Assembly: GCA_051872415.1 (NCBI GenBank) | Contig: JBJEDW010000042.1 | Span: 1-47,310 of the forward strand | Source of the DNA: Bacilli bacterium | Lineage (GTDB): Bacteria > Bacillota_I > Bacilli_A > RF39 > UBA660 | Reading direction: 5' to 3' | Length of the DNA: 47,310 nucleotides | Shown: in pieces, positions 2,688 through 21,948 of the stretch | How positions within the stretch are numbered: the stretch's first letter is position 1 | Layout of the letters: each line of letters starts with the position of its first letter | Program-made: the position numbers and the translations under genes | Notes under the pieces: model-generated | Databases searched by the model: none | What the model was told of the DNA's origin: nothing | What the model saw: the letters and a program-made list of their open reading frames with translations, nothing else

Positions 2688-3386
2688 TTAATATTTTATA
2701 TCCCCACTTTTTATAAATTCTCTTAAAATTTTAGTAACTGCTCTTTTTTCAATTCTTGAAACATAACTTCTTGAAATATTAAGATCTTTTGCTATCTCTT
2801 TTTGAGTTTGTTCATCGTGATTTAAGAGCCCGTATCTTCTTACAATTATCTCTTTTTCTCTTTGAGAAAGCCTATTTAAATATTTTCCAAGTAATTTAAT
2901 ATTATCTTTTACATACATATCTTCTATATAATCAGGTTTCGGAGTTTTTAAAATATCTAAGATTGTTATATCATTACCTTCTTTATCATATCCAATTGGA
3001 TCATCTAAAGATATTGTATTATTATTTTTCTTATTACTTCTAAAAAACATTAATACTTCATTTTCAATACATTTAGCACAATAAGTAGTAATCTTTGTTC
3101 CATGTTTTTTTGAGTAAGAATCTATTCCCTTTATTAACCCAATAGTGCCAATACTTATTAAATCATCATTATCTATGTTGGTATTTTCATATTTTTTTGT
3201 AATATGTGCAACTAATCTTAAATTATGTTCAATAAGTTTATCTCTTGCGTCTTTATCTCCTTTTAAAAGCAAATCAATATATTTTTCTTCTTCTTCTTTT
3301 GAAAGTGGCTCTTTAAAGACATTATTAGAATAAGAAGTTTTAAAAAGCATTAAAGCCTTTAAAAATGTTACTAAGCTTACTAACAA
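2688..3386 (-). CDS. sigK: sporulation sigma factor SigK (pro-sigma-K), uninterrupted
   Basis: The stretch SYSNNVFKEPLSKEEEEKY...LIEHNLRLVAHITKKYENT...DLISIGTIGLIKGIDSY...CIENEVLMFFR tracks my memory of B. subtilis SigK, including a hydrophobic pro-sequence. TTG start, 6-7 nt after AGGTGA. Confidence 0.85.
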   Translation of the reverse strand: MLVSLVTFLKALMLFKTSYSNNVFKEPLSKEEEEKYIDLLLKGDKDARDKLIEHNLRLVAHITKKYENTNIDNDDLISIGTIGLIKGIDSYSKKHGTKITTYCAKCIENEVLMFFRSNKKNNNTISLDDPIGYDKEGNDITILDILKTPKPDYIEDMYVKDNIKLLGKYLNRLSQREKEIIVRRYGLLNHDEQTQKEIAKDLNISRSYVSRIEKRAVTKILREFIKSGDIKY

Positions 3387-6839: not shown

Positions 6840-7409
6840 TTAATTAATGCATCCAGTAAAATAGTTTTCTACTACTCTTAGATACTGTTTAAAAATATTA
6901 GCTTTTTTAATATTTGAATCTGATAAAAGCGGAATTTCTTTTATTATTTTATTTTCATCTTTTAAATAAAGTTTACCTATTTCCTCCCCTTTCTTGATTG
7001 GATAATTTATATCTCCTAGTTTTATTTCATAAGTATAAGTTTTATTTTTTTCTCCTTTTTTTACTGTTACTTTAACATTTTCTCCTAAAACAAGATTAAC
7101 TTTGTTTTTGTTTGCTTTGTTAAGTTTTATTTCTTTTATGATTTTACCTTTAGAAAAAATGCTTTTACTTTCATACTGATTATATCCATAATCAAGTAGT
7201 GCCATTGTTTCGCTATTTCTAGTTGTAGTGTTATCATATCCTAGACTTATTACTATTAATCTAAGTCCATTTTTTTCAGCAGTTACTGCGATTGATGACC
7301 CTGCTTCATCTGTATAACCTGTTTTTAATCCATCTACTCCTTTGTAAAATTTAACAAGTTTAATTGTGTTTAAGTTTTGCAATAAAAATGCCTCTAATAT
7401 CAAATCCAT
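6840..7409 (-). pseudogene. 3' (C-terminal) segment of a split serine-type D-Ala-D-Ala carboxypeptidase. The native part is 6840..7354; codons upstream of the core derive from the element.
   Basis: KGVDGLKTGYTDEAGSSIAV carries the KTG box and is followed by a PBP5-type C-terminal beta-domain. There is no signal peptide, SxxK or SxN. The first 19 codons (MDLILEAFLLQNLNTIKLV) lie inside the inserted element. Confidence 0.85.
7342..7354. repeat. left junction core (att-like) TTGTAAAATTTAA
   Basis: 13 bp identical to 21233..21245, in the same reading-frame register of the dac gene (K-F-Y codons). It sits within the near-palindrome TTGTAAAATTTAACAA (7342..7357). Confidence 0.75.
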
Positions 7410-7465
7410 TATTGATTTTATTATATCATTTATGCATAATTTATGATAGATATTAAAGAAAAAAA

Positions 7466-7819
7466 TTAATTTAAATTGTTAATATAATCTCTAAGTTTTA
7501 GCAATGATCTACTTTTTACCCTAGAAACTTTATATTGTGGTATATCAAGTATTTTAGCTATTTCTTTTTGTTTATACTCCCTACATCCAATACCAAATGT
7601 CATTTTTATAATTAAATATTCCAATTCGTTTAAATTATTTTTTATAATATTATATAAGTCAATAGATGATTCTTTTATAATTACACTTTCTAATATATTT
7701 ATACTTTCATCTTTTATTGTATCCTTTATAGATAAATTATCGCTAATTTCTTCTTCTATTGAAATATTTGAATTAGTATTATTTTTTATAAATTTTAATA
7801 TTTCATTTTTTATACACAC
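7466..7819 (-). CDS. sigma-70 region-4-like HTH protein (no regions 2 or 3)
   Basis: The C-terminal LEYLIIKMTFGIGCREYKQKEIAKILDIPQYKVSRVKSRSLLKLRDYI resembles a sigma-70 region 4 / ECF-type HTH. The N-terminal half is low-complexity. GTG start. Confidence 0.55.
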   Translation of the reverse strand: MCIKNEILKFIKNNTNSNISIEEEISDNLSIKDTIKDESINILESVIIKESSIDLYNIIKNNLNELEYLIIKMTFGIGCREYKQKEIAKILDIPQYKVSRVKSRSLLKLRDYINNLN

Positions 7820-7924
7820 ATAAGCATAAGTATTAAAAACTCATATGTTTATCTTGATATATCAATATAAATAATTGTTTTATCAATAATAAAATGATAC
7901 TATTATTATTATTAAGAAAGGAAA

Positions 7925-8428
7925 GTGAATATGGAAACTATAGATTTATATGACAAAAACAAAAATAAATTAAACAAAACTTTTATCAGAAAAAAAGATA
8001 CTCTTTTGGAAAACGAATATTATTTACTTGAACAAGCTTGGATTGTTAATGACGAAGGAAAAATATTGTTAACGCAGAGAGGATTAAATAAATCTCATGG
8101 CGAAATGTGGGAAGCTACTGCAGGGCATGTAAAAGCAGGAGAAACGGATATGGAAGGTATTTTAAGAGAAATAAAGGAAGAAATTGGTATCACATTAAAA
8201 AATAGTGATTTAAATTTTATAAAATCACTAATCATTAAACAAGGTATTTTAGATATTTGGCTTGTAAGAAAAAATATTAATCTTTCAAACATTAAACTTA
8301 GAGAAAGCGAAACTATTGATGTAAAATATGTCTCATTTGAAGAATTTAAAAAAATGTATAACAATAAAGAAATCGTTCAAAATTTAGACTATTTTTTTGA
8401 TATTTATAAACAATATATTAATAAATAA
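7925..8428 (+). CDS. Nudix hydrolase
   Basis: Nudix box GHVKAGETDMEGILREIKEEIGI. Confidence 0.85.
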   Translation: MNMETIDLYDKNKNKLNKTFIRKKDTLLENEYYLLEQAWIVNDEGKILLTQRGLNKSHGEMWEATAGHVKAGETDMEGILREIKEEIGITLKNSDLNFIKSLIIKQGILDIWLVRKNINLSNIKLRESETIDVKYVSFEEFKKMYNNKEIVQNLDYFFDIYKQYINK

Positions 8429-8471
8429 AAGCACTAAAATGTTTCATTCTTATTAGTAACTTTTATATTAT

Positions 8472-8963
8472 TTACTTTTCTATATAAGTAGTAAATATTA
8501 CTTCATTATTATTTATCTTATCGATTTGCCCTTTTAAAAAATCAGGTTTTATAGGAGCATTATCAAGATTATTAATATCAAACCATTTGAAAACTAAATT
8601 TTCTGTTTTTTCTACTCCATTAAATTCTTCATCTTCAAAGCAAATCCATTCATCGTTTTCTACATTAACAATGTAACTAAAAATATATTGATGAATGTCA
8701 GTTTTATCAAATGTAAAAAAATACTCTGATACACTATTACATCTTTTTATTTCAAATCTATTTATATTTAATTCTTCTTGTAATTCTCTTTTTATTGTAT
8801 CAACGCTTTGTTCACCTACCCGTACTTTTCCTCCAGGTAAAGCCCAAAACTCGTCTTGTTTTCTTTTTTGAAATAAAACTTTACCATCTTTTTCTATAAC
8901 AGCAACTGCTCTTATATTTAATAAAACATCACAAATTTTTACATTTATATCTTTTTCTTTCAT
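8472..8963 (-). CDS. Nudix hydrolase (paralogue of 8969..9463)
   Basis: Nudix box PGGKVRVGEQSVDTIKRELQEELNI. It shares the N-terminal K-I-C-D-V-x-x-N-x-R-A-V-A motif with its neighbour. Confidence 0.85.
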   Translation of the reverse strand: MKEKDINVKICDVLLNIRAVAVIEKDGKVLFQKRKQDEFWALPGGKVRVGEQSVDTIKRELQEELNINRFEIKRCNSVSEYFFTFDKTDIHQYIFSYIVNVENDEWICFEDEEFNGVEKTENLVFKWFDINNLDNAPIKPDFLKGQIDKINNNEVIFTTYIEK

Positions 8964-8968
8964 TTAAT

Positions 8969-9463
8969 TCATCTCCTTATTTTTGATTTTACCATATTTT
9001 TTTTAGGATTATCAATAAGTTCAATTAATTTTTCTTTTATTTCTATTGGAGCAATAGAAATACTATTCAAATCATCTTCATTGAACCATGCATATTTTAA
9101 ATGCTTGTTTACTTCAATACCATCAAAATATTTTGTATCTTTTATTTTACTACCTTCTTTTAAAGAAGCCAAATACATAAACATATATTCATGAAATTTT
9201 TCATTATCATAGGTAAAGAAATTTTCAAAAAATCCCATACTTTCATTTATTTCAACTTCTTCTCCTATTTCTTCTTTTAACTCTCTTTTTATTGTTTCTC
9301 CACCTGTTTCTAATACAGCTATCTTCCCACCTGGTAAAGACCAAATTGTGTCTTTTTCTCTTTTTTGAAATAAAATTTTATCATTATCAACAATAATAGC
9401 TACAGCTCTACAATTAACCCTAACATCACATATCTTAAATGTTATATCTGTTTTTTCTGCCAT
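8969..9463 (-). CDS. Nudix hydrolase (paralogue of 8472..8963)
   Basis: Nudix box PGGKIAVLETGGETIKRELKEEIGEE. Confidence 0.85.
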   Translation of the reverse strand: MAEKTDITFKICDVRVNCRAVAIIVDNDKILFQKREKDTIWSLPGGKIAVLETGGETIKRELKEEIGEEVEINESMGFFENFFTYDNEKFHEYMFMYLASLKEGSKIKDTKYFDGIEVNKHLKYAWFNEDDLNSISIAPIEIKEKLIELIDNPKKNMVKSKIRR

Positions 9464-9465
9464 TT

Positions 9466-10404
9466 TTAATCTCTCCTTTTTAATAATATTTTTTTTACAC
9501 TTTCAATTGTTTCATTTTCACAATCAATCCCCTGAATCATTTTTGTAACAAATGTATCTGAAAAATCAAATTTATTTCTATAATGTCCAACTAATTCATT
9601 CATATAATTTTTTTGACTTGGAAAAGAATTATCTCCCATAACATAACTATCCATTATTCTATCAATTTGCTCTGGTGGAATATATTCCATTTTTAAATTA
9701 GTAGAATGTAAGTCATAATCACATAAAATAATCGTATTAAAACTAACATTTGATTTCATAGAGGTTTGAAAATAAATTGGAATATCTTTATTTTCAATGA
9801 ATGTTTTACTTATTTCAGAAATATGATATGAATCAATTTTATCTGATATATTAGAAATATCATTGTCAGATATTCCCATTGAAAAAGGAATTCCACATAT
9901 TTTTGTTTCATCTTTACATTTTTTTATTGCAATCCTATCGTTTGCAACAAATCCATAACCATTTTGTAATAGTTTAATCAATAAAGTTGTTTTACCACTT
10001 CCAGCATTTCCTGTGATAATTACTCCTTTATCATCCTTATATGCACATGCACCATGTAAAATACAATATCCTTCTTTTTGAAAAACCTTAATCCACGTAG
10101 TGGTAAAAATTCTTTTTACAAATGATTTCTTTTCGCTTGAATAATATGGTAAATAAACATTTAAACTATTACCATTCTTTTTTATATAATTATACGAAGT
10201 ATCATTTTTTTCTTTATCCATATATTTGGGATCTTCTGGAATACCTATTAAAAAGTTTATTTCATATTTTATATCAGTTATAGGGTCATTATAATAATCA
10301 CCAAACATATCTATTAAATCATCAATAATTTCACTACAAAAAGAATTAACTTTTATTGATATATCATTACATGAAAATATATAGTTACTCACTTGTTCTA
10401 TCAC
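9466..10404 (-). CDS. HPr-kinase C-terminal-domain-like P-loop protein (HprK-related kinase)
   Basis: LHGACAYKDDKGVIITGNAGSGKTTLLIKLLQNGYGFVANDRIAI matches the HprK-like pattern (H-G ... G-x-S-G-x-GK-[ST] ... DD/ND). Confidence 0.6.
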   Translation of the reverse strand: MIEQVSNYIFSCNDISIKVNSFCSEIIDDLIDMFGDYYNDPITDIKYEINFLIGIPEDPKYMDKEKNDTSYNYIKKNGNSLNVYLPYYSSEKKSFVKRIFTTTWIKVFQKEGYCILHGACAYKDDKGVIITGNAGSGKTTLLIKLLQNGYGFVANDRIAIKKCKDETKICGIPFSMGISDNDISNISDKIDSYHISEISKTFIENKDIPIYFQTSMKSNVSFNTIILCDYDLHSTNLKMEYIPPEQIDRIMDSYVMGDNSFPSQKNYMNELVGHYRNKFDFSDTFVTKMIQGIDCENETIESVKKILLKRRD

Positions 10405-10427
10405 TTCCTTAATTCTCTCTTAAAATA

Positions 10428-11411
10428 TTATTTTCGTACTCTTTTATATTCATCTAAAAATTCTTTATCCATAATTTCTCTTATAAAATCATCTCTAAAT
10501 TCAATCATAAATTTTATATTATTAATTATTTCTTCATAAGATATTGCAAGTTTTTCGCAAATTGGATTTAATTCATTATATAATACCAATTTTGATGAAT
10601 TTGTGAATTCATCATAAGATAGATGTCTATATAGATTTATTTCAAAATTGCAATACTCTATCGATTCATCTATTGGATTTAGTTTAATATATGCCCTTTT
10701 ATTCACATTCTTACTAAATATAATTGCCTTATAATTACTCAATAATTTATAACTAATAGGAAATAATAATTCTCCCACGTTTTCAGTTCTAAAATTTGGA
10801 TTAAATATTTCGTATAATCTATGTGGATAATTTGTATATGAATATTGGCTTTTTCCAAATGCATCTAGTGCATATGGATAATCATCATCTCCTGTTTTTT
10901 TTATTTCTATTTTTAAATCTGGCTGATCGCAAATAGTAGATGTTCTATCTTTTTCAAAAACCATTGGTTCTTTTATTTTTAATCCTGGATCATATATAAC
11001 ATAATTTACCGAATCATCTTTAACTGTTGGATATAATAAAGAAATATGTGATTCCTTTACTTTTTTATCTCCAATGGATAATGCATAATTATTTGCTTTA
11101 TGTGATAAAAAATATGTTCTTACTCCATAATTATTTAATTTTTCTTTTAATACTTTGCATAAGTAATAACAATTATATCTAGTAGTTTCAAAATCAGCAA
11201 CTTTTAAAGAATTATATGTATCAATTAAAGACTTTATATAATTTTCCCTTAATAAAGTAATCATATCAAAGCTATTAATTGAATATTCTTCCAAAACTTC
11301 ATCTATCAAACTTGTAGTTTCTTCAATTATTTTTTCATCATATTTAGGAAATTCGTCCCCACTTAATCTTTGTTTTATAATACTAAATTCTTTGTCTCTT
11401 ATAATTTCCAC
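10428..11411 (-). CDS. hypothetical protein (possible Cys/His/Asp papain- or NAT-like fold)
   Basis: 327-aa ORF in the operon. Ordered NCYYLC ... SHISLLY ... VIYDPG could form a C-H-D triad, which is speculative. The GTG start overlaps the upstream gene by 29 nt. Confidence 0.5.
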   Translation of the reverse strand: MEIIRDKEFSIIKQRLSGDEFPKYDEKIIEETTSLIDEVLEEYSINSFDMITLLRENYIKSLIDTYNSLKVADFETTRYNCYYLCKVLKEKLNNYGVRTYFLSHKANNYALSIGDKKVKESHISLLYPTVKDDSVNYVIYDPGLKIKEPMVFEKDRTSTICDQPDLKIEIKKTGDDDYPYALDAFGKSQYSYTNYPHRLYEIFNPNFRTENVGELLFPISYKLLSNYKAIIFSKNVNKRAYIKLNPIDESIEYCNFEINLYRHLSYDEFTNSSKLVLYNELNPICEKLAISYEEIINNIKFMIEFRDDFIREIMDKEFLDEYKRVRK

Positions 11412-12168
11412 TTTTGTTTTCCCTCACTTTATTTGTAGATAAAGATTGTTTTTTCATTGAATAATTATCCATTAAAATAAACAATTCTTCTAAATCCATA
11501 TCACTATACAAAAATTTTTCTATTAAGCTTAACTTATCTAAATAAACATGGTTATCATTTATTTCATTAGGTTCTTCATACTCAAGCATTGTTTTAATTT
11601 TTGAATATGCTTTTTCTAGTATTTCTTTTGTTTCAGATTTCAAAAGTGCTTTTAAAGTATATCCCAATATTCCAGCAATAGTTATATTTTCATTCAAGAA
11701 ACTATCTCTAAACTGAATCAAATTTTCTGACTCAATATTTTTGATTTTGTTTTTGTATAAACATGGAGTTAAATCTACATATACTAACTCTTCATCGTTA
11801 TATATAAAATTTTTTAAATTCCAATCTAAGCATAAATTTTCATCTTGTTTACATAATTTATATAAATTAGCATATTTTGAAAATATTTGTAATTTATAAT
11901 CAATATCATATTTTTTTTCAGATAGTATATCTTCTAAAGTAGAACCTTCAATATATTCTTGAATTAAAACTTTGTAATTGGAAAATTCTAATTCATCATA
12001 AATTCTTGCTGTTTTTATTCCTAATCTATTAATATCTTGTTCATATTGTTTAACATTTTCAAAATTTATCTCAGACATAACTTGATTGAATATTTCATCA
12101 CCACTTTTAGAAATCTTAATTATATATTTATCTAATTTAAATACATCATTGAATGTTCCACTTTCCAT
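11383..12168 (-). CDS. protein-kinase-fold (APH/choline-kinase-like) protein, divergent
   Basis: A lysine-containing N-lobe (YIIKISK), the hinge IQEYIEG, the catalytic-loop-like DWNLKN (DxxxxN) and VYVDL. Confidence 0.5.
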   Translation of the reverse strand: MESGTFNDVFKLDKYIIKISKSGDEIFNQVMSEINFENVKQYEQDINRLGIKTARIYDELEFSNYKVLIQEYIEGSTLEDILSEKKYDIDYKLQIFSKYANLYKLCKQDENLCLDWNLKNFIYNDEELVYVDLTPCLYKNKIKNIESENLIQFRDSFLNENITIAGILGYTLKALLKSETKEILEKAYSKIKTMLEYEEPNEINDNHVYLDKLSLIEKFLYSDMDLEELFILMDNYSMKKQSLSTNKVRENKSGNYKRQRI

Positions 12169-13024
12169 TTTTTATTTCCCCCAAAAACTTTTTTGTTATT
12201 TTATAATTAAGTTTATAAAAATCAGTATCTTGTTGATTGTTTATAACACACCAATATAAAGAAGTATATGAATCAAAGAAACTATAAAAGTTTAACTTGT
12301 CATCAAAAAAATCATCTAATTCTTTTATTTCTTTATATCCATTTAATAAAATATTAAAGTTTCTTTTATTAAATATTCTATTCATTTTTACAAAGTCAAA
12401 AATATAATCACCATTTTTCATACTTTCCAAATCTATTATTCCAACATTATGATTAGTACCAAAAATAACATTACCTATTCTAAAGTCCATATGACAAATA
12501 CTATTTTTATAATTATTTTTTATTTTTTTATTAATATAATTATTTAATGTATCATAAATTAAATCATTGTCTTTTTTTGTAAAAATTTCTTTAGTTACTG
12601 CAGATGTTTTATCTAAACAATTATTTAAATATGTAATCCAGGAATCATCATCTTTATCTATAATTTTACAACTATGTATTTTAGCTAATAATTTACCTAC
12701 TTCAAATATAGCATTTTTATCTAAATTATTACATTCTTCATCAAATATACTTTTACCTTCAAATTTAGTAAATATATTATATTCATATTCACCATAAGTA
12801 CCACTATCAATAACTTTTGAGGTAGGAACAAAATCATATAAATAATTATAATATTTTGCTTCATTAATTCTTTTTGATAAAGTTTTTGATATTTTAAAAA
12901 TATATTCTTCATCTGTTGAATTTACAATATATACTTTAGAATTATATGAATTTGTTGCTAGCTTAATTTTCTTAGCCTCAATATTATTTTTTTTAAATAT
13001 TTCTATTATATCTTTCTTTTTCAT
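12146..13024 (-). CDS. aminoglycoside/choline-kinase family phosphotransferase
   Basis: Brenner-type motif CHMDFRIGN (HxDxxxxN) followed by GIIDLE. The N-lobe has YIFKISK. Confidence 0.75.
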   Translation of the reverse strand: MKKKDIIEIFKKNNIEAKKIKLATNSYNSKVYIVNSTDEEYIFKISKTLSKRINEAKYYNYLYDFVPTSKVIDSGTYGEYEYNIFTKFEGKSIFDEECNNLDKNAIFEVGKLLAKIHSCKIIDKDDDSWITYLNNCLDKTSAVTKEIFTKKDNDLIYDTLNNYINKKIKNNYKNSICHMDFRIGNVIFGTNHNVGIIDLESMKNGDYIFDFVKMNRIFNKRNFNILLNGYKEIKELDDFFDDKLNFYSFFDSYTSLYWCVINNQQDTDFYKLNYKITKKFLGEIKNGKWNIQ

Positions 13025-13026
13025 AA

Positions 13027-14331
13027 CTACCTCTCTGTCTTTTTATATACAATATCTTTTTTTGTAAATTTACTAACAATTAATCTTTTTAAATATATTA
13101 TAAACCCAGACGGTCTAAATATAAACCAAATTGGAGAGATTAGAAATGCTAAAAGCACATTTAATTTATTATCCTTTTTAAAATTATTTATTTTTATAAT
13201 TATATAAGATGCTATACACCATAAGTAAGGAATTGATAGTAATAACCAAAAACCCATACTGAACTTAAATATTACAATCGAATATATATAATAACCAAAT
13301 ATAAAATATGGAAATATTGTAAAAACACTAAGATTACCTAAACCAATAATAAGCATTTTTATTTTTCCAAAAATATACTTATTACTTATATTTTTTATTT
13401 CGCTAAAAAATGTAAGTGTTCCTTTAAATATCAGTGTTGCACTATTCATATAACTATATAAATCATTATATATTAAAGTATAATTATATGATGGCAAATA
13501 AGAAAATTTTGCATTTTTTATGGACAATCTAAATCCTAATGTTAAATCATCTACAAAAAATGGAAATTTATCATTTTCAATTAATGTATTTAATTTTAAA
13601 TGCATGCAAGCACCCATACAATATTGTGGTATGGTGTGATTTGTTAAAGAGCAAAATAACAATTTAAATTTTTCGACTGCACAAGACCTTATTATATGTT
13701 GAAGTGTATATAAAACTAACATAACATTAGATGTTTTTTGTGATAAATCTTCATAATTTTTAAGACACAAAGGAACTTGCCCAATAACATCTGGATTATT
13801 TTTAAATTCTGCAACTACATTAACTTTCTCAAAAGTATCAAGTTCTGGTTTAGAATCAAAATCAAATACTGAAATATACGTATTTTCAAGATTTGGCTTT
13901 AAGTATTCGTTAATATAATCAATAGCATAGTTCATTTGTGATGATTTATTACCATTGGTTTTGGGATAATGCAAATGAATAAATCTATTATCTTTAATTT
14001 GTTTTAAATATTTATCTACTACAGTGTTAGTTGTTTGTTCTTTTACTTTATTTAATTTATATTCATTATCTTCTTTCTCACTAGTTATTATTATAAACTT
14101 TATTTTACCTTTGTATTTATATTTACTAAACCAATCTATTGTACTTTTTACTATTTTTTGTTCTTTAAGTGCTGGAAGTAATACATATATATCTTTATAT
14201 TTTTTAATTTTAATTCTTCCTAATTTTTTAATATATTTTTTTTCTAAGAAAATTGTCAATATAGTAAGTATAAAACCAAAAACATATATCACAAAAAGTG
14301 AAATAGCAATTATATTCAAAATTTTATTCAT
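13027..14331 (-). CDS. membrane-embedded family 2 glycosyltransferase
   Basis: An N-terminal TM helix, a GT-A core (VLLPALKEQ, DFD, FVDDLTLGFR) and several C-terminal TM helices. The start shares 1 nt with the upstream stop (TAATG). Confidence 0.7.
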   Translation of the reverse strand: MNKILNIIAISLFVIYVFGFILTILTIFLEKKYIKKLGRIKIKKYKDIYVLLPALKEQKIVKSTIDWFSKYKYKGKIKFIIITSEKEDNEYKLNKVKEQTTNTVVDKYLKQIKDNRFIHLHYPKTNGNKSSQMNYAIDYINEYLKPNLENTYISVFDFDSKPELDTFEKVNVVAEFKNNPDVIGQVPLCLKNYEDLSQKTSNVMLVLYTLQHIIRSCAVEKFKLLFCSLTNHTIPQYCMGACMHLKLNTLIENDKFPFFVDDLTLGFRLSIKNAKFSYLPSYNYTLIYNDLYSYMNSATLIFKGTLTFFSEIKNISNKYIFGKIKMLIIGLGNLSVFTIFPYFIFGYYIYSIVIFKFSMGFWLLLSIPYLWCIASYIIIKINNFKKDNKLNVLLAFLISPIWFIFRPSGFIIYLKRLIVSKFTKKDIVYKKTER

Positions 14332-15971
14332 TAATTAGACTCCTTTCTCCCTAACTGGTTATTTAAAATTTTAATTCCCTGTAAGAAAAATGCTAACTGT
14401 CTATCTGGATAGTCTTCATGTAGAGGTATCATAGATATAAATAATAGCCCTTCAATCAATTCTATATCATCTATATTAATACCTTTATTTTTAAGATATA
14501 AATCATAATAGCTATAATTGATGTTCTTGTAAAACAATATATTATATTTATTATTATCTTCTTTCTTCACTTCAAATAAATCATTTATTATCTCATCATA
14601 TCTTCCATGATAACTATGTCTTATTTTTGCCAAATCATATCTATAATCTCCATAGATAGTATCCTTACCAAAATTACCACGTGGATCAATAAATTTATAT
14701 ATCATATTTCTCGGAGAAAACAATATATTTACAAAGCAAGGATCTCCATGAATTATACTAATGAAATCATTTGTTGTTTCAATAATATGATTTAGTCTTT
14801 TTTCTAATTTTTCTAATAATGGTAAAATACCTAAATATTTTTCATTATTTATATAAATTACTTTTTTATTCTTTAATTCTTCATAATTCCATTCTTTCAA
14901 TCTACTTATTGTTTTATTCATTAATATTTCTTTAGTATAATTTTTAAAATTCATATTTTTTATTTTATTTGTATCATATATCTTAAATAATTTATCAATT
15001 AAATTCTTAAATATATATTCTTTACTATAATATGTTAATGGATAAAAAGTATAATATTCTGACAATGTTAAATAATCATAAAATTCTATTCCATATTTAT
15101 TTTCAGTTTCATCTACATCAAATAACTTTGGAGTAATTTTACTAAAATTTGTATTTTCTATTTGTTTAAACCATTTAATTTCAGAAGAAATACTTTCATT
15201 GTCACTTTTTTTAGATAAAACCCCAAATTCATCTAATGTTATATTATTATAAAATCTACAATTAAAACTATTTTTATTAGTCTTTGAATAACCTTCCAAA
15301 GTTCCTATATCTTGCCAGTTATCTATGTTTTCTATCAGTAATGGTTCTTTTTTTCTATACTCTTCAAAATATGATGATAGTTGATATTCACCTTTTATTT
15401 TTTCTATTTTGGTATTTAATACTTTTTTCAGTAATTTACTATTCTTGAAGAAATAAATTCCTACCGCTGCATCATTACTGTCAATATTAGTAGTAGGTTT
15501 ATCAATAATTTCTGTTATAACATTATTCTTATTCTTTATAATACAATATTTATATAACTCTTCATCTTTGACTTTTGAAGTACCTATCCAACTATTATTA
15601 TAATTTTTTGGATAACAACAAAAAGTATCGGATAATAGTAATAAAGTTGATTTACTTTCATTAATATAATCTTTTGTGATTTCAAGTGCTTTCCCAGGAC
15701 CAGAAAAATCATTTTGAATAATATAATTTATATTAATATCAATATTACAAAATGATTCATTTAAAAAATCTCTAATCATCATTTCATTTTCTTTATTAAC
15801 TACTAAAATTATTTCTTTTAAACCTTTTTTTATCAATGGAACAATCATATTGTAAATGAAAGGTTTTTGCTTAACGCTTAGTAACCCTTTTGGAAATCCC
15901 ATAGTAAGAGGATATAATCTTGAAGATTTACCACCCATCAAAATAATTAATTGTTTATCATTAAAATTCAT
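14331..15971 (-). CDS. fusion protein: sugar-phosphate nucleotidyltransferase (N-terminal) + APH/choline-kinase-like phosphotransferase (C-terminal)
   Basis: The N-terminal ILMGGKSSRLYPLTMGFPKGLL is the G-x-G-x-R-L ... PK nucleotidyltransferase signature. The C-terminus has IIHGDPCFVN (HGDxxxxN) and FIDPRG. Confidence 0.75.
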   Translation of the reverse strand: MNFNDKQLIILMGGKSSRLYPLTMGFPKGLLSVKQKPFIYNMIVPLIKKGLKEIILVVNKENEMMIRDFLNESFCNIDININYIIQNDFSGPGKALEITKDYINESKSTLLLLSDTFCCYPKNYNNSWIGTSKVKDEELYKYCIIKNKNNVITEIIDKPTTNIDSNDAAVGIYFFKNSKLLKKVLNTKIEKIKGEYQLSSYFEEYRKKEPLLIENIDNWQDIGTLEGYSKTNKNSFNCRFYNNITLDEFGVLSKKSDNESISSEIKWFKQIENTNFSKITPKLFDVDETENKYGIEFYDYLTLSEYYTFYPLTYYSKEYIFKNLIDKLFKIYDTNKIKNMNFKNYTKEILMNKTISRLKEWNYEELKNKKVIYINNEKYLGILPLLEKLEKRLNHIIETTNDFISIIHGDPCFVNILFSPRNMIYKFIDPRGNFGKDTIYGDYRYDLAKIRHSYHGRYDEIINDLFEVKKEDNNKYNILFYKNINYSYYDLYLKNKGINIDDIELIEGLLFISMIPLHEDYPDRQLAFFLQGIKILNNQLGRKESN

Positions 15972-15974
15972 ATA

Positions 15975-16814
15975 CTACCTCCTTAATTTTTTTATAAATT
16001 CCAAGCTTTCATCATCCTGTAAACCAATTTTTGGGGTACTTTTTTCATTATGAAAATCGCTTCCACAAGTCTTTAACAATCTAAATTTATCTGCTAAACT
16101 CTTAAGAAATATGATTTGTTTAGATGTTGTTTTATCCAAATTATTAATTTCTATTCCATCTAATCCTTGTTCTACTAGTGTTTTGACAAATAATTCTAAT
16201 TCTTCATTATCATATTTCATTGAAAAAGGATGAGCTAAAACAGCATAGCCACCATTATCTTTGATTAACTTTATTACATTATTAGCGGTTAGAGATACTT
16301 TTTTTTCATAACATGGAGATTCTTTACTCGTATATAAATATCCTGCTTGTATGTAATTATCAGCATAATTATTTTTTATTAACCAATTTGTTATATCACG
16401 TTTACTTAAAGTGCCATCTACTGAATTTAATAATAATTCTTCTATGTCAATTTTTATCCCATAAACTCTATAAATGTTTTCTATTATCTTTTTTATAACA
16501 TAAAAGTTTTTATTATTAATATCATCTAACGCATTTTTAACATTATATATATTTTCTATTCCATAACCTAAAATATGTAAAAATCTGTTTTCTTCAACAT
16601 CAAATTCAATAGCAGGTATTATTGCAACTTTTTGATTCTGTGAATATTTTTTAAAAAATTCTTTATTTATTTCTTCTTCGTTCTTTTTCTCTATATAATT
16701 GTGATCAGCAAATGATACCACTTCAAAATTGTTTTCATTAAAATATCTTAACAATTCCAATTTGCTATATTTCCCATCAGAACAACTACTGTGTATGTGT
16801 AAATCGTATTTCAT
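15975..16814 (-). CDS. PHP-domain phosphoesterase
   Basis: N-terminal YDLHIHSSCSDG and later HNY / HIL / AHP / SDFH metal-ligand-like histidines, typical of the PHP family. Confidence 0.75.
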   Translation of the reverse strand: MKYDLHIHSSCSDGKYSKLELLRYFNENNFEVVSFADHNYIEKKNEEEINKEFFKKYSQNQKVAIIPAIEFDVEENRFLHILGYGIENIYNVKNALDDINNKNFYVIKKIIENIYRVYGIKIDIEELLLNSVDGTLSKRDITNWLIKNNYADNYIQAGYLYTSKESPCYEKKVSLTANNVIKLIKDNGGYAVLAHPFSMKYDNEELELFVKTLVEQGLDGIEINNLDKTTSKQIIFLKSLADKFRLLKTCGSDFHNEKSTPKIGLQDDESLEFIKKLRR

Positions 16815-16816
16815 TT

Positions 16817-17188
16817 TTATCTTCCTATCAATTCATTTATTTCTTCTTTAGTTAAGTTTAATAATTCATTTGGTCTAATAGTTCTATCATCTACATAAAA
16901 GCCATTTTTCCCTGGATATGGTTTACCAAAAATAATTTCATCATATGGTATTTCCCATTTTGATAGCCATTTTTCAAGTATTGGTTTAGTATTTTTTAAA
17001 ATCAAATCTATATTACCATTATAAGTTCTCATGTTTCTAGCAGTAAATAAAACTATTTTATATCCATCTTTTTTTAATTCTCTTATTTTACTTACCATAT
17101 CAGGAAATGGTACTAAGTCTTCATATTTTTCTTCTTCTTTTTTTATAGGACAAATAGTTCCATCTATATCAAAAATTATTGAATTCAT
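16817..17188 (-). CDS. HAD-superfamily phosphatase-like protein
   Basis: Motif I IIFDIDGTI, motif II-like LFTAR, and a late DD. 4-nt overlap (ATGA) with the upstream gene. Confidence 0.65.
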   Translation of the reverse strand: MNSIIFDIDGTICPIKKEEEKYEDLVPFPDMVSKIRELKKDGYKIVLFTARNMRTYNGNIDLILKNTKPILEKWLSKWEIPYDEIIFGKPYPGKNGFYVDDRTIRPNELLNLTKEEINELIGR

Positions 17189-17718
17189 ATCTCATTCCTC
17201 CTGATTTTCAAAAATAATTCATTCCAGTTAGTAACTCTATTTTTAATATCTTTATATTTATTTTTATCATCAAATATTATTACTTTTATACTATCTTTTA
17301 GTTCATTATAAATGTCGATACTATCATCAATCATTAAATCTATCTTATTTTCCAGACATTCTTTTTTCTTATACTTTTCTGTTAGAATAAGTCTTTTATA
17401 TGGAATATTATATTGCTTTAAACTTTTTTCTGTAAATTCATACATATTTTCACAATATTCTTTACTTCTTGCTGAAATTATATATATTTCATTACCATCA
17501 TTAATAAGTTTATTTAAGTTTACTAAAACATCTTTTTTTAATTTCACATCCGAAAATATCAAATTTAAATTTTTCTTAATGTAATCCACTCTATTTTTTC
17601 TAATATTCCATAATTCATGTTCTGTTATATTTTTTTCCTTTAAATATAAACTCTGATATTTTTTATATTGTTCATCTGTACAAAAAATTGTATTATCTAA
17701 GTCAATACCAATCCTCAT
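17185..17718 (-). CDS. HAD-like nucleotidase/phosphatase
   Basis: Motif I IGIDLDNTI, IISARS, and IDDS near the C-terminus. First gene of the operon, with AGGAGG 8 nt upstream of the ATG. Confidence 0.6.
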   Translation of the reverse strand: MRIGIDLDNTIFCTDEQYKKYQSLYLKEKNITEHELWNIRKNRVDYIKKNLNLIFSDVKLKKDVLVNLNKLINDGNEIYIISARSKEYCENMYEFTEKSLKQYNIPYKRLILTEKYKKKECLENKIDLMIDDSIDIYNELKDSIKVIIFDDKNKYKDIKNRVTNWNELFLKIRRNEI

Positions 17719-17905
17719 TGTTTTTCTCCTCCTAAAATAAGAAAAAACGTCAATAAACTTTAATAAGTGTAAATGACGTTATTAGATATTAAAAAAAAAT
17801 TCATTTAAATTAGAGAATGAAAAACACTTATAATATATTAATTTTATAACACTATTATATAGTTTATCATACATAAAATCACCCTCTTTTCAAACAATTG
17901 ATAAT

Positions 17906-17934
17906 AATATACACTAAAACTAAACTAAAGTCAA
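17906..17934 (-). promoter_or_regulatory. candidate sigma-A-type promoter of the cargo operon (TTGACT-17-TATATT)
   Basis: On the minus strand the -35 TTGACT is at 17934..17929 and the -10 TATATT is at 17911..17906, with a 17-nt spacer. It is bracketed by the 10-bp inverted repeat AAACAATTGA/TCAATTGTTT (17892..17901 and 17931..17940). Confidence 0.45.
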
Positions 17935-18056
17935 TTGTTTTTAATTTATATATTTTTATTTATACATTTCTATTTCCAATATGAAAAGAACAATATTCTA
18001 TCATTCAAATAATGTTCTTTATTTTTTTGTACACATTACTAATGTGTTAATGCTTA

Positions 18057-18470
18057 TTATTTAACAATAATTTTTTTAATGTTAGGCCATGTTCCATAAT
18101 AATAGTTTCCAGATACTTTTTTAACTGCTCTTAATTTAAATTTATATGTTTTGTTAGAAGAAAGTTTTTTAACTTTGTAACTTGATTTTGAAACATAAAT
18201 ATATTTCCAAGTGTTTGAATTAGATTTTTTACAACCTATTTGATAAGTAACATTTCTTGCTGATACGTAATAAGAAACTTTAATTGCTTTTTTTCTTTGC
18301 TGCTGAATTTTTAATAACAATTTTAACAGATTTTATTTTGAAAGTTTTGGTTATTGTTCCTGCATAATTTCTTTTTATTGTTACTGTTGCATTTACAATA
18401 TATTTATTATTTCTATGGGAAACTGTGTAATCTTTCCCTTTTACTAAAGTTTTTTTAACACTTTTTACTA
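18057..18470 (-). pseudogene. frameshifted remnant of a cell-surface repeat protein (Fn3-like C-terminal module)
   Basis: The 87-aa ORF reads ...KVKKLSSNKTYKFKLRAVKKVSGNYYYGTWPNIKKI, which is Fn3-like. Another frame of 18320..18470 reads ...KDYTVSHRNNKYIVNATVTIKRNYAGTITKTFKI, a common clostridial surface-repeat pattern. There is no start codon or signal peptide. Confidence 0.5.
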
Positions 18471-19112
18471 TGATTTTTTAATATTTTCTTTTTTCACTAA
18501 ATCACTTGTTTGAATTATTTCTAGATCATCCATATTCAACTCTTTTATATCATTAATAAATTGTTCTTTTACACTTTCTGGAACCATATTAATTTTTCCA
18601 CCAATTATATCTACTATTGGGACTAATTCAGCTGAATATACTCCTCTATTAGCATAACTAGCATCAGTAAATTCAGGCCCCTTACCAGTACCTATATCTC
18701 CATTAATATGCTCTGCTAATAAGAAATATTGATTTTCCTTTTCAGTTTGATACTCATAAATAGGTTCTTCTTGTATTATTTCTACATCTATACCTATTTC
18801 TTCTTTTAGTTCCCTTATCGTAGTTTCACTTAATGTTTCATTACTTTCTATACCACCGCCAGGTACAACATAGTATTCATTTTTAATGCCATCTTTAACT
18901 TTTATTCTATGCATTAATAATAATTTGCCATCTTTTATTATTAATCCACCTGCTCTTGATCTCATTTCTTTCTTCCTCCTTATATCACTTACTATATTAT
19001 ATACTGATTTTTCTAAACGTTCAATTGTTCCGTCATTGCATATTACGTAATCAGCACTATTTTTAACTTCATTAGCACCTTTACTTAATTTTTTATTATC
19101 TTTAATATCCAC
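18468..19112 (-). CDS. Nudix hydrolase with an N-terminal extension resembling the C-terminal end of dephospho-CoA kinase
   Basis: Nudix box PGGGIESNETLSETTIRELKEEIGID. The N-terminal ADYVICNDGTIERLEKSV resembles a CoaE C-terminus. The GTG start lies only 5 codons after an in-frame stop; an internal Met before the Nudix fold is an alternative start. Confidence 0.7.
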   Translation of the reverse strand: MDIKDNKKLSKGANEVKNSADYVICNDGTIERLEKSVYNIVSDIRRKKEMRSRAGGLIIKDGKLLLMHRIKVKDGIKNEYYVVPGGGIESNETLSETTIRELKEEIGIDVEIIQEEPIYEYQTEKENQYFLLAEHINGDIGTGKGPEFTDASYANRGVYSAELVPIVDIIGGKINMVPESVKEQFINDIKELNMDDLEIIQTSDLVKKENIKKS

Positions 19113-19285
19113 TTTATCTTTTGATTTTTATAAAAAAAGAAATTTACGTTTGTATTTATTCTCTTTAATATAGTTAATTACTTTTTTCTGTACTTATTAT
19201 CTCTACATACTATTTATACTACATAAATGAGCAAGGATGCTCCAATATATGTTTAATTGTATTTTATTCATTGTTCGAATTTATT

Positions 19286-19334
19286 ATAAAAAAATAAAAA
19301 AACTAAATAGAAATAGTGTATATCTATTCAGTTT
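19286..19334 (-). terminator. rho-independent terminator candidate after the recombinase and small-ORF pair
   Basis: Stem 19324..19334 pairs with 19300..19310 (10 of 11 pairs) around a 13-nt loop. On the minus strand it is followed by UUUUUUAUUUUUUU. Confidence 0.5.
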
Positions 19335-19352
19335 CTTTTAAAAATATCAAAA

Positions 19353-19538
19353 CTAATATGGTTTTAATTCGTTAAGCTTAACTTTAGCATCCTTTAATGA
19401 TTTAAATTCAAAAATATAATTTAAATTTATAGTATTATTTGAGACTAAGCATTTTTCTATAACATAATTATTTCCTTTTTTTATTAGAGAAATAATTATT
19501 CCTTTATTATCATATATATCAATCAATTTTTCTTTCAT
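19353..19538 (-). CDS. small hypothetical protein immediately downstream of the recombinase (possible directionality factor; unproven)
   Basis: 61-aa ORF starting 2 nt after the recombinase stop and followed by a terminator. No motif recognised. Confidence 0.4.
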   Translation of the reverse strand: MKEKLIDIYDNKGIIISLIKKGNNYVIEKCLVSNNTINLNYIFEFKSLKDAKVKLNELKPY

Positions 19539-19540
19539 AA

Positions 19541-21004
19541 TTACCTCTTAAATTCTACAGATTTTATTATAATATTTTTTGTATCTTTTACAACTTCTAT
19601 CTTCTCTACAAATCTTTCTAAAAATTGCATTTTTTCTTTATTAGTAAGGTTTTCCCAATTTAATTTTATATTTGTAACTAAATCCTTTACATCATCATAA
19701 GAAATATCCTTTTTTCCATCATCAATATCTTTATTAATTTCTTCAAGTTCATTCTTATAAATTATTTGCATATTATTAATTTCTTCAGTAATAGTTCTAT
19801 ATTCTTTAGCAGTTAATAAATCATTTATAAAATCATTTCTAATTGTTTTTTTCTTATTTTCAAAACTCTCTATTTTTTTTAAAATAGAAGCTTTTCTCTT
19901 ATTATTTGATGTTAAATCTTTATTTTTTTTCAGTATTGATTCATCTGGTTTCATATTTTTTAGTGTAGATAAATACTCTAGAAAAGATTTTTCCATATTT
20001 TTATGAGAAAATCCACCGCAATCACAAGCACCACGACATGCATTATTGCATCTATATGTGATATATAATTTTCCATATTGTGTTTGTTGTCTTGCACAAA
20101 TATTGCCTCCACATTTTCCACATTTAATAATATGAAAATAATAAGAATTTTCACTTGGATATCTTCTTACAGAGTAATGCTTTCTAGTTTTAATTGTTTT
20201 ATTTGCAAGTTCCCATTTATCATTTTCAATAATTGGTTCTATTTCATTACCATCAACAGTAAATGACTTATCTTTAATTTTACCTGTAACACCATATCTT
20301 ACTTTACCAACATAAAGTGGATTATTAATTATTGATTTAATTGTAGCAGGAGCCCAATGTCCTCCTCTTTTAGTGGGTATACTTTCTATATTAAAAAGTT
20401 TAGCAATTTTAAAATATGACATTCCATCAATATACAAATCAAAGATTCTATTAACTAAAGCTTTTTCTTCTTCATTTACTACAAGCTTTCCTTCTCCTAC
20501 AATATAATCATAACCATACACACCATTTGTATTAGTATAATTTCCTTCTCTTGTTTTTTGTTCATATCCAAATGAAACTCTTTCAGCCAAATTTTCTCTT
20601 TCAAATTCTGCAAATATTCCTATTATTTTTACAAACATTCTACCAACTGCATTAGATGTATCAATTTTTTCTGTTTGAGAATTAAATGTACAAGAGTGGT
20701 TTTCAAATAATTCGATTAAATATATTAAGTCTCTAACACTTCTGGTTAAACGATCTAGTTTATATATCAATATATTATTTACTTTTCCTTCTTTTACATC
20801 TTTTAAAAGTCTTGAAACTTCAGGTCTTTCATTTAAATTTTTTCCACTAATTCCATCATCTACATAATAATCATAAATAAACCAATCATTAGCTTCGGCA
20901 TATTTTGTTAATTTTTCTCTTTGGGCATGAATAGAAAAACCATCTTTTGCTTGATCTTCAGTTGATACACGAATATATATACCTGTTGATATTCTTTCAT
21001 TCAT
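19541..21004 (-). CDS. large serine recombinase (SpoIVCA/SprA/phage-integrase type)
   Basis: The N-terminal resolvase catalytic domain has YIRVSTEDQ...DGFS...Q. It is followed by a recombinase domain, a Cys-rich zinc-ribbon region (CGKCGG...YRCNNACRGACDCGG) and a C-terminal coiled coil. 487 aa. Confidence 0.9.
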   Translation of the reverse strand: MNERISTGIYIRVSTEDQAKDGFSIHAQREKLTKYAEANDWFIYDYYVDDGISGKNLNERPEVSRLLKDVKEGKVNNILIYKLDRLTRSVRDLIYLIELFENHSCTFNSQTEKIDTSNAVGRMFVKIIGIFAEFERENLAERVSFGYEQKTREGNYTNTNGVYGYDYIVGEGKLVVNEEEKALVNRIFDLYIDGMSYFKIAKLFNIESIPTKRGGHWAPATIKSIINNPLYVGKVRYGVTGKIKDKSFTVDGNEIEPIIENDKWELANKTIKTRKHYSVRRYPSENSYYFHIIKCGKCGGNICARQQTQYGKLYITYRCNNACRGACDCGGFSHKNMEKSFLEYLSTLKNMKPDESILKKNKDLTSNNKRKASILKKIESFENKKKTIRNDFINDLLTAKEYRTITEEINNMQIIYKNELEEINKDIDDGKKDISYDDVKDLVTNIKLNWENLTNKEKMQFLERFVEKIEVVKDTKNIIIKSVEFKR

Positions 21005-21182
21005 AAATTATCTCCTCCATTTTACTAAATGGATTTGATATTATTTTTTAATATTCTGGGTATACTCGTATTAATAAAAAACTTCATAATTTCAATTTGA
21101 ATATTTCTTGATATAATATTATCTGTCACATTTATCCCTACTTTCTAATAAAGTATAGATAAATAATTTTAAAATTATGCAG

Positions 21183-21201
21183 GTTTATTGTAAAATTTAA
21201 A
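21183..21201. repeat. extra internal copy of the element-arm-plus-core sequence GTTTATTGTAAAATTTAAA
   Basis: 19 of 19 bp identical to 21228..21246 (the right junction) and 45 bp further inside the element. Confidence 0.7.
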
Positions 21202-21219
21202 TAGATACCTTTCGCACGA

Positions 21220-21885
21220 TTATATGAGTTTATTGTAAAATTTAAACACGACTTTGTTTGTATTAACTATCCATGTTTTATTTTCTGTGTTTTCTCTAAT
21301 GTAGTCTTCATACTTACTGGTGTAATCAAGTATTTTTTTATGTTTAATAAGTTCTTTTGCGATGATTGCCATATCATAACTACTTGAATAGGCTCCTTCT
21401 TCATCAAACCCTGTTGAATTTACAAAGTTAGTATTTTTTAGTCCTAGTTTTTTAGCTTTTTCGTTCATTTGTTTTACAAAAGCTTCTTCTGTTCCACTTA
21501 CTCTTTCAGCCATAAGTACCATTGCATCATTAGCACTTGCCATGGTAATTCCCTTTAAAAGATCATCTACACTAATCTTTTCTCCTTCTTCAAGCCATAT
21601 TTGAGTTCCACCCATTTCTTTTGCATTTTTACTCACTGTTAATTGTTCGTTTATCTTTATAGAACCATCATCTATTTTTTCAAAAATAAGTAAAAGTCCC
21701 ATCATTTTTGTAAGTGACGCTACACTTTTTTTTGAATTAGCATTTTTATTATATAAAATTTCTCCTGTATCATAATCAATCATAACTGCAGATGATGCTC
21801 CTTTTGTTATATCAATTTCATTTGCATTTACGCTTAATGGTATAAATAAAAATGCTATCAGAAATGTAATAATTATTTTTTTCAT
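21220..21885 (-). pseudogene. 5' (N-terminal) segment of the split serine-type D-Ala-D-Ala carboxypeptidase. The native part is 21233..21885; the last 4 codons and the stop come from the element.
   Basis: Signal peptide MKKIIITFLIAFLFIPLSVNA, SxxK (SLTK), SxN (SAN), and an end at ...WIVNTNKVVFKFY/NKLI*. The KTG box is absent here and present in 6840..7354. Confidence 0.85.
21233..21245. repeat. right junction core (att-like) TTGTAAAATTTAA
   Basis: Identical to 7342..7354 and encodes K-F-Y of the N-terminal dac fragment in the same frame register. Confidence 0.75.
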
Positions 21886-21948
21886 TTACTTATCACCTAT
21901 TAAAAACTATGATAATAAATTACATATAGAAGTAAAAAAGACATAAAT

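Follow-up and report, generated by a model that had tools for sequence, protein, structure and literature searches.

The window examined here is the whole 47,310-nt stretch of contig JBJEDW010000042.1 (GenBank assembly GCA_051872415.1) from a bacterium of the GTDB lineage Bacillota_I; Bacilli_A; RF39; UBA660. It contains a D-Ala-D-Ala carboxypeptidase gene of the PBP5 type, referred to below as dac, which is a single gene split by an element carrying a large serine recombinase (LSR). The two parts lie in two minus-strand open reading frames (ORFs). The ORF of 221 amino acids at 21220..21885(-) contains the signal peptide, the SxxK box (SLTK), and the SxN box (SAN), and the 189-aa ORF at 6840..7409(-) contains the KTG box and the PBP5 C-terminal domain. 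The genuine dac 5′ segment (21253..21885, -; codons 1–211) ends with the AAA codon of Lys211, and the ORF extends past it through 10 element-encoded codons (VVFKFYNKLI*). The 3′ segment (6840..7358, -; codons 212–383 plus the stop codon) starts with LVKFYKGVDGLKTG... and includes the KTG box and the PBP5_C domain. When the two segments were joined in silico at the AAA codon, they gave a 383-aa protein colinear with all homologues. In the Pfam analysis of the joined protein, Peptidase_S11 (PF00768) ran unbroken over residues 29–253 and PBP5_C (PF07943) covered residues 274–364. The signal peptide, SxxK, SxN, KTG, and PBP5_C occur in one polypeptide only once the halves are joined. An earlier reading of this DNA, made from the letters alone (the sequence-only reading), had taken the two ORFs as halves of one PBP5-type enzyme whose 5′ part supplies SLTK and SAN and whose 3′ part supplies KTG, and the single Peptidase_S11 match followed by PBP5_C bears this out.

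Intact homologues are plentiful (93–94% identity, 382–385 aa). The AAA join was stop-free at all 14 loci with both halves, yielding Dac proteins of 327–401 aa, and no degraded half was found among more than 30 N-halves and about 20 C-halves. The window allele is likewise without decay: the nonsynonymous and synonymous divergences (dN/dS) were 0.002/0.094 for the N half compared with locus L001 and 0.022/0.19 for the C half compared with locus L146 (labels of this type denote related contigs or loci compared with the window). The cross-species dN/dS values of the halves were 0.05–0.3 for the closest pairs, with dS near saturation. Because of this saturation and because the insertions are recent, dN/dS is not decisive as proof of selection on the dac halves.

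The exact borders of the element were given by L146, a conspecific contig with an empty site, which matches the window with 98.7% nucleotide identity along 4,827 bp of one flank and 96.2% along 2,499 bp of the other. The joined 383-aa dac has the same structure as the gene at this empty site. The homology stops at plus-strand positions 7362 and 21253, that is, at a common TTT (7359-7361 and 21253-21255). The element thus spans 7362..21255 (equivalently 7359..21252, with TTT at both ends), is 13,894 bp long, and has a GC content of about 22.5%. Along the gene strand, the sequence passes from host to element as ...AATACAAACAAA|GTCGTGTTTAAATTTTACAATAAAC and from element to host as ...CTTAAACACAATTAAA|CTTGTTAAATTTTACAAAGG. 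A crossover at the AA within this AAA removes 13,894 bp and gives the 383-aa product. There is no target duplication, and the empty-site homology breaks at the AAA common to both junctions, as in the attachment sites of serine integrases. A search of related genomes for the empty site had been proposed from the sequence; besides L146, it was found in a sister species with the same gene order.

The crossover point differs from that of the sequence-only reading, which had regarded a 13-bp sequence, TTGTAAAATTTAA, found at both junctions in the same codon register, as the recombination core and had predicted a deletion of 13,891 bp and an uninterrupted 384-codon ORF. The exact copies are indeed present, one in the host B′ arm (7342..7354, +) and one in the element P′ arm (21233..21245, +), and the 384-codon join is an open frame with one Peptidase_S11 match (4.5e-71) and PBP5_C. 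The 13-mer, however, is not the core, the deletion length is not that of the empty site, and the 384-codon join is not the canonical product. The expected gap-free alignment was not obtained: the join reads NTNKVVFKFYKG where the homologues read NTNKLV(K/R)FYKG, and this one-residue insertion with a substitution occurs in no homologue. In addition, the 13-mer is not repeated at the junctions of other elements (e.g., L008), and the empty-site homology ends elsewhere. A third exact copy at 21188-21200, within the element, had been overlooked; chance alone would give 0.06 exact copies in the window, which has three. On the gene strand the AAA lies upstream of the 13-mer, at a distance of 4 nt at the C-side junction and 7 nt at the N-side junction, placing the motif 3 bp further from the centre in P′ than in B′. 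The attP and attB half-sites of serine integrases are known to space their outer motifs differently. The crossover is located in the AAA by the empty-site homology and by some 90 further junctions, and we therefore conclude that the 13-mer reflects similarity between half-sites, as an outer motif, and is not the crossover. In the AAA model, the predicted joint of the repaired dac is ...AATACAAACAAACTTGTTAAA... and that of the attP circle is ...CACAATTAAAGTCGTGTTT...; the synthetic joints for this model were ...GTTAATACAAACAAACTTGTTAAATTTTAC... (attB) and ...AAACTTAAACACAATTAAAGTCGTGTTTAAATTTTAC... (attP), and the alternative joints of the 13-mer model were ...AAAGTCGTGTTTAAATTTTACAAAGGAG... 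and ...AATTAAACTTGTTAAATTTTACAATAAAC....

Each end of the element is a hybrid attachment site. The N-side site (21228..21281, -) consists of the host B arm, the dinucleotide AA (plus-strand 21254-21255), and the element P′ arm GTCGTGTTTAAATTTTACAATAA, and the C-side site (7334..7387, -) consists of the element P arm TTATTGCAAAACTTAAACACAATT, the dinucleotide AA (plus-strand 7360-7361), and the host B′ arm. The reconstructed attP, TTATTGCAAAACTTAAACACAATT-AA-AGTCGTGTTTAAATTTTACAATAA, is an inverted repeat in which P and P′ are identical at 21 of 26 positions in the window; the corresponding value ranged from 15 to 23 of 26 in 12 elements. All four half-sites, in the window as well as in 12 related elements, have the pattern AC.A.T in the six positions next to the AA (-6 to -1). 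About 40 host|P′ junctions from genomes had the form ...W(L/I)VNTNK AAA|GTCGTRT, 52 from metagenome contigs the form ...NTNK AAA|GTCGTRT, and about 22 opposite junctions the form ...ACAAWT|AAA CTn GTn. The attachment site is a conserved stretch of 40–50 bp in dac, corresponding to the codons W-I/L-V-N-T-N-K|L-V-K/R-F-Y just before the KTG box. All that speaks for an assembly artefact or a chimeric contig is the origin of the related sequences in metagenome assemblies. The same junction nucleotide recurs, with host and element arms on one contig, in about 90 independent contigs that stem from different hosts and studies, which refutes this explanation; the chance of an artefact is practically nil.

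The window element belongs to a widespread, horizontally mobile family of LSR elements with exactly defined attachment sites in dac. LSRs with 48–85% identity to that of the window are common in metagenomes, and across the whole family (48–100% identity) the same codon split of dac was found in about 45 species genomes, scanned as one genome per species, and in 52 metagenome contigs. A truncated S11 gene adjoined the LSR in every context examined, and the break fell at residues 208–216 in nearly all of the approximately 45 species. The hosts are uncultured Bacilli of the gut of chickens, humans, rabbits, mice, and sheep, including 'Clostridium sp. CAG:1193' and 'Mycoplasma sp. CAG:611'. The smallest of the elements measures 2,276 bp and the largest exceed 11 kb, and their cargo is unrelated. 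One subfamily has the LSR inverted at the opposite end of the element, with the crossover unchanged.

In the window, the LSR gene (19541..21004, -; 487 aa) lies just inside the right end, as had been read from the sequence. Its product has the full domain set of Resolvase (PF00239, 7.5e-41), Recombinase (PF07508, 6.7e-23), and Zn ribbon (PF13408, 4e-05), and the catalytic motif YIRVSTEDQ was invariant in 12 LSR homologues. The protein matched the integrase family phrog_95 at 9e-126, and no LSR in the phage collection was more than 35.5% identical to it. Directly upstream lies a 34-aa ORF (VTDNIISRNIQIEIMKFFINTSIPRILKNNIKSI; 21025..21129, -), a candidate directionality factor. An ORF of 34–37 aa containing ..IQIEIMKFFLxTSIPRIL.. 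was kept in all subfamilies checked; it was not located in two elements with an inverted LSR, L050 and L054. The small ORF matched phrog_30936, a phage family of no known function, and gave no match to the known directionality-factor families. In the 2.3-kb element L048, in which the LSR is inverted and lies at the far end, the small ORF holds its place and orientation beside the P′ arm. Because it is conserved and stands beside the P′ arm even where the LSR is inverted, the 34-aa ORF is a core component of the system and the best candidate for its directionality factor. Another ORF, of 61 aa (19353..19538, -), directly follows the LSR gene. It was rejected as a universal directionality factor since it occurs in only part of the family (L011, L012, L015, L020, and L055).

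The region between the P′ arm and the small ORF also has a conserved organization. A promoter-like block, GCATAAT-14 nt-TCTATACT (21152..21180, -), lies upstream of the 34-aa ORF and is conserved. Abutting this block on the upstream side, about 45 bp inside the element, is a second P′-like half-site (21183..21207, -), which holds the third copy of the 13-mer, and an equivalent duplicate half-site was present in the related elements inspected (L004, L008, L011, and L020). The order inside the P′ arm, namely the second half-site, GCATAWW-14-TCTATACT, the small ORF, and usually the LSR, was the same in all examined elements of the main orientation and in the inverted-LSR element L048. The duplicate half-site may be a binding site of the LSR that couples occupancy by the recombinase to the operon promoter. 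No terminator-like site was found in the window between the dac 5′ part and the LSR operon, and the first one downstream of the dac 5′ part is at 19229-19242, after the 61-aa ORF. Read-through into the operon from the dac promoter is therefore possible in the window.

The promoter of dac was analysed using 31 non-redundant dac upstream regions, with about 429 upstream regions of other ORFs in the same loci as the control. The sigma-E consensus, as given in the 1995 review by Haldenwang, is reportedly ZHATAXX-14-CATACAHT, and the strict pattern applied here was ZHATAXX-13/15-CATAnnnT. CATA was present at a fixed distance from the ribosome-binding site in all 31 dac upstream regions, and a regular expression search found CATAnnnT in 27 of them, although the share of C in these regions is as low as 5.5%. 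In addition, most of the regions have (T/G)(C/A/T)ATA(A/T)(A/T) 13–14 nt upstream of the CATA. The strict sigma-E pattern was found in 14 of the 31 regions, compared with 0.17 in shuffles, and in only two of the controls, both of which precede homologues of SpoIIIAH (above the Pfam gathering threshold). SpoIIIAH is a member of the sigma-E regulon in model spore-formers. Its homologues are located a few kb from the split dac, at 3777-4298 of L012 and 3749-4246 of L039, and have the sigma-E-type promoters TAATAAA-13-CATATGAT and TAATATT-13-CATATAGT, respectively, indicating that these uncultured Bacilli keep mother-cell sporulation genes. Sigma-K and sigma-G patterns were found in none of the 31 dac upstream regions. 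In Clostridioides difficile, the -10 element is shared by the two mother-cell factors, and the -35 element is ATA in the case of sigma-E and AC in that of sigma-K (PMC3789822). These results suggest that the dac family carries a conserved promoter of the sigma-E, or mother-cell, type, and that the gene may encode a DacB-like cortex carboxypeptidase of the mother cell. The window itself has the dac -10-like element CATAGTTT (21904..21911, -), 26 nt before the ATG. It also contains a pro-sigma-K gene (2688..3386, -), which is intact, as had been noticed from the sequence (NF004471, 304 bits with a cut-off of 252), and which serves as a marker for the capacity to sporulate. The region upstream of this gene, TTATATT-13-CATATACT-TTAATAGGTGA, has the same layout as dac, CATAGTTT-TTAATAGGTGA.

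We consider that there is an even chance that dac encodes a DacB-like mother-cell enzyme that is rebuilt by excision of the element in the mother cell, as with skin, SPbeta, vfbin, gin, and yin. In the proposed mechanism, the LSR and a directionality factor would excise the element in the sporulating mother cell and thereby rebuild dac. The directionality factor would be the product of the 34-aa ORF beside the P′ arm, which in the window would be transcribed by read-through from the dac promoter. The forespore chromosome would retain the element, and outside sporulation the element would act as an ordinary mobile island.

The proposed mechanism can be compared with several known systems. In skin of Bacillus subtilis (sigK, with SpoIVCA and Skr), an LSR element also lies inside the coding region of a mother-cell sporulation gene, a status that for dac comes from the promoter motif. 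The sequence-only reading had likened the topology to those of skin and SPbeta, and the likeness to skin holds: the recombinase gene lies a short way downstream of the 5′ gene part and in matching orientation, and precise excision restores the reading frame, in silico in the case of dac. A small ORF lies directly upstream of the recombinase gene in both systems, and Skr overlaps the 5′ end of spoIVCA (PMC6957869). The differences are that the dac target is a putative cortex DD-carboxypeptidase and not a sigma factor, that the window LSR is only distantly related to characterised integrases, that the candidate directionality factor is only 34 aa long, that the element has no phage genes, and that the dac elements are currently mobile between species. 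Moreover, developmental excision has been shown for skin, whereas it is proposed for dac. The proposed logic, in which the recombinase is available and the factor is under mother-cell control, is the same as that of skinCd in C. difficile (the LSR CD1231 and the sigma-E-controlled CD1234; PMC5025042). The control of the dac small ORF, in contrast, is deduced from its P′-side position downstream of a sigma-E-type promoter, and the target and the host group also differ.

Other elements show that individual features of the dac family have precedents. Gin, in gerE of Bacillus cereus, demonstrates that a non-phage element with just a site-specific recombination system can be gene-intervening (PMC5595907). 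SPbeta and phi3T show that such elements can stay fully mobile, and yin that they can be polymorphic in presence and absence between closely related strains (PMC10747680); the targets of SPbeta, phi3T, and yin are spsM, kamA, and yabG. The dac family differs from these elements in its new target and in its far broader occupancy, with genomes of about 45 species and 52 metagenome contigs; its smallest units measure 2.3 kb, and a second LSR family occupies another site in the same gene. The XisF fdxN element of Anabaena is excised specifically in heterocysts: as proposed for dac, an LSR frees a gene of its element in a cell that has differentiated terminally. The two systems belong to different phyla and have different target genes and developmental programmes, and the likeness of the window LSR to XisF is only at the general level of the LSR family (1.5e-40, well below the cut-off of the XisF model).

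Several observations weigh against developmental excision. A search of the LSR operon for a clean sigma-E or sigma-K promoter found none: the block upstream of the small ORF has a sigma-E-like -35 element and spacing, together with a non-canonical -10 element of the TATACT type, not CATA. The dac promoter of the window has a good -10 element and a poor -35 element. In the inverted-LSR subfamily, a hairpin and a T-run lie between the junction and the small ORF, so that read-through is not a general mechanism. For these uncultured orders, the ability to sporulate is no more than a prediction (PMC10868615). With regard to the identity of the enzyme, the NCBIfam models had no power to discriminate between DacB, DacF, and DacA, and a paralogue call on this basis was dropped. 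The dacB-spmA-spmB context of B. subtilis was not found either: there is no spmAB downstream of the window dac, which leaves DacB orthology without support from gene order, and the neighbours of dac are a convergent HIGH_NTase1 gene and a VanY/LdcB-like gene. The exact 383-aa and 384-aa products were absent from a collection of 15 billion proteins, and hence no reconstituted allele of this strain was seen. No free attP circle was found in the viral and metagenome scans. The single match among viral contigs was inside an unrelated phage gene. Of 55 metagenome matches, 52 were integrated copies, as the search pattern also fits the host|P′ junction, and the remaining three were a terminator hairpin (L099), a chance match (L129), and a joint between tandem elements (L119). 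One locus does not follow the split-gene arrangement: at about 9640-9700 of L016 (Candidatus Scybalousia intestinigallinarum), the P′ arm follows ...CTATACAAACGAATAAA, with no Dac coding sequence upstream. Either the dac 5′ half has been deleted there or a secondary site has been used.

The recent mobility of the family also belongs to these observations. LSRs with 99–100% identity occur in hosts whose Dac N-halves are just 48–71% identical, which points to recent horizontal mobility. The identities of LSR and Dac were uncorrelated (Spearman 0.05, 496 pairs), and an ancient, vertically inherited (domesticated) element was therefore rejected. It follows from the recent mobility that the intact halves are no proof of selection for reconstitution and may reflect recent insertion. 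A single host flank carried up to three different elements across samples. In L119, at about 3984 (minus orientation), the P arm of one subfamily is fused via AAA to the P′ arm of another, showing that tandem elements exist; the cargo of the upstream element is like that of the window element (nucleotidyltransferase, membrane protein, and APH kinase). The history of the window element is in line with such mobility. Comparison of window positions 21253-22200 and about 7190-7358 with L001 and L146 revealed a mosaic structure of the window dac. In the joined gene, nucleotides 1-800, which span both sides of the insertion, are 97–100% identical to L001, which is from another species (96–100% with about 300 bp upstream included), and only 80–96% identical to the conspecific L146. 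The flanks of L001 are only about 84% identical to the window, and the last 350 nt of dac match L146. This mosaic between L001 and L146 suggests that homologous recombination brought in the window element along with dac flanks of the donor.

An alternative is that the element is an ordinary integrative island with no developmental role, for which the conserved dac stretch would simply be attB; insertion would knock out a dispensable carboxypeptidase, and excision would be sporadic and serve transfer. Such an island agrees with the presence of identical LSRs in very different hosts, the turnover of elements within one host species, the tandem elements, and the apparent import of the window element, as well as with the sigma-A-like -10 element (TATACT/TATAAT) at the LSR operon and the failure of the metagenome scan and the protein look-up to find an excision product. 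Durrant et al. (2022) described LSR mobile elements that likewise converge on one conserved coding site (PMC10083194). Such convergence of diverse LSRs is a general pattern, and LSR elements commonly enter conserved coding sequences that play no part in development, which also counts against developmental excision; that study makes no developmental claim, and carboxypeptidase is not among the targets in its main text (PMC10083194). The sequence-only reading had named a simple inactivating island as its alternative, and we retain it as the main rival, a serious possibility that nevertheless falls somewhat short of an even chance. The sigma-E-type promoter of the dac family, otherwise found in these loci only upstream of spoIIIAH, and the lack of degradation in any of the N- and C-halves weigh against it. 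The published gene-intervening elements sit in mother-cell genes (PMC6957869), and the layout of the dac element fits those of skin and yin (PMC10747680).

A further point against an ordinary island is that a second, unrelated LSR family targets the same dac gene. This family lies at the SxN box (...SAN|DA...), with the 3′ end of its recombinase gene abutting codon ~115, and was seen in L017 (8719-9429), L047, L027, L092, L096, L127, L135, L140, L114, and L139. This would leave dac broken into three pieces on such contigs, corresponding to codons 1-114, 115-213, and 214-end; the piece with codons 1-114 was not found within the DNA available for them. The developmental proposal can be extended to both families. 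In the extended form, a whole clade of uncultured gut Bacilli would during sporulation assemble a sigma-E-driven cortex carboxypeptidase gene, dac, from two pieces, or three in some species, by excision of one or two unrelated LSR elements, the 34-aa protein would be a new, minimal directionality factor expressed, at least in the main subfamily, through dac read-through, and dac would be a 'safe harbour' for elements that still hop between species. We regard this extended scenario, taken as a whole, as rather unlikely.

The LSR and the small ORF form one unit, and its promoter is not clearly specific to sporulation. These features could also suit a reversible vegetative switch ('active lysogeny'), in which excision and reintegration toggle the carboxypeptidase and hence the cross-linking of peptidoglycan. 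Precedents exist in comK, with its A118-like prophage, and in yin, whose excision depends on the growth phase (PMC10747680). However, the dac promoter is sigma-E-like, and the intact gene would thus be silent in growing cells anyway; in addition, serine integrases are strongly directional, and neither mixed populations nor attP sites were seen in the metagenome scan and the protein look-up. A vegetative switch is therefore quite improbable.

The targets of gene-intervening elements in sporulation that are named in the papers retrieved are sigK, spsM, spoVFB, spoVR, gerE, kamA, and yabG (PMC6957869, PMC5595907, PMC10747680). No mention of dac, dacB, or a carboxypeptidase as the target of such an element was found in the literature, although this is weak evidence as most subscription journals were outside the coverage. 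If developmental excision is shown, the dac family would stand out by its new target gene, its new host group, its unusually wide occupancy, and its minimal units. A peptidoglycan-remodelling gene would then join the short list of sporulation genes rearranged at the DNA level, and among the uncultured gut Bacilli with reduced genomes, whose capacity for sporulation is debated, it would be the first. The family also offers a natural series of minimal recombination units, the 2.3-kb form consisting of attP, the LSR, and the 34-aa ORF, and its nucleotide-defined attachment sites should be useful in studies of directionality control and as orthogonal integrase tools. For the prediction of sporulation and cell-wall phenotypes, a split dac in these metagenome-assembled genomes should not be scored as a pseudogene.

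The use of the target site extends beyond the low-GC Bacilli. The NTNK codon is also the point at which L136 (1-105) is interrupted, in a host flank rich in GC (ATGGACACCCTGCGGGGC...AAGCTGGTGAACACCAACAAA), and the LSR on this contig is without its N-terminus.

The cargo of the window element (7466..19112) is encoded on the minus strand except for one NUDIX gene on the plus strand (7925..8428). According to the domain matches, it comprises four NUDIX hydrolases, two HAD-like proteins, one PHP protein, a 546-aa sugar-1-phosphate nucleotidyltransferase with a long C-terminal extension, a multi-pass membrane GT2-like protein, an APH-type kinase, a 261-aa ORF without a family, and an HprK-like protein. 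No phage structural or conjugation genes were found among the cargo. The part at 7925-19112 looks like a small pathway modifying a phospho-sugar or a surface polymer. At the left end of the element, a 117-aa ORF (7466-7819, -) aligns only to sigma regions 3-4, with no region 2, and its best match is to positions 110-229 of the 235 positions in the SigK model. This ORF could be a truncated sigma gene or encode a small region-4 protein. The right flank of the window holds two very large ORFs, 34159-38844 (1,561 aa) and 42383-46864 (1,493 aa), both on the minus strand.

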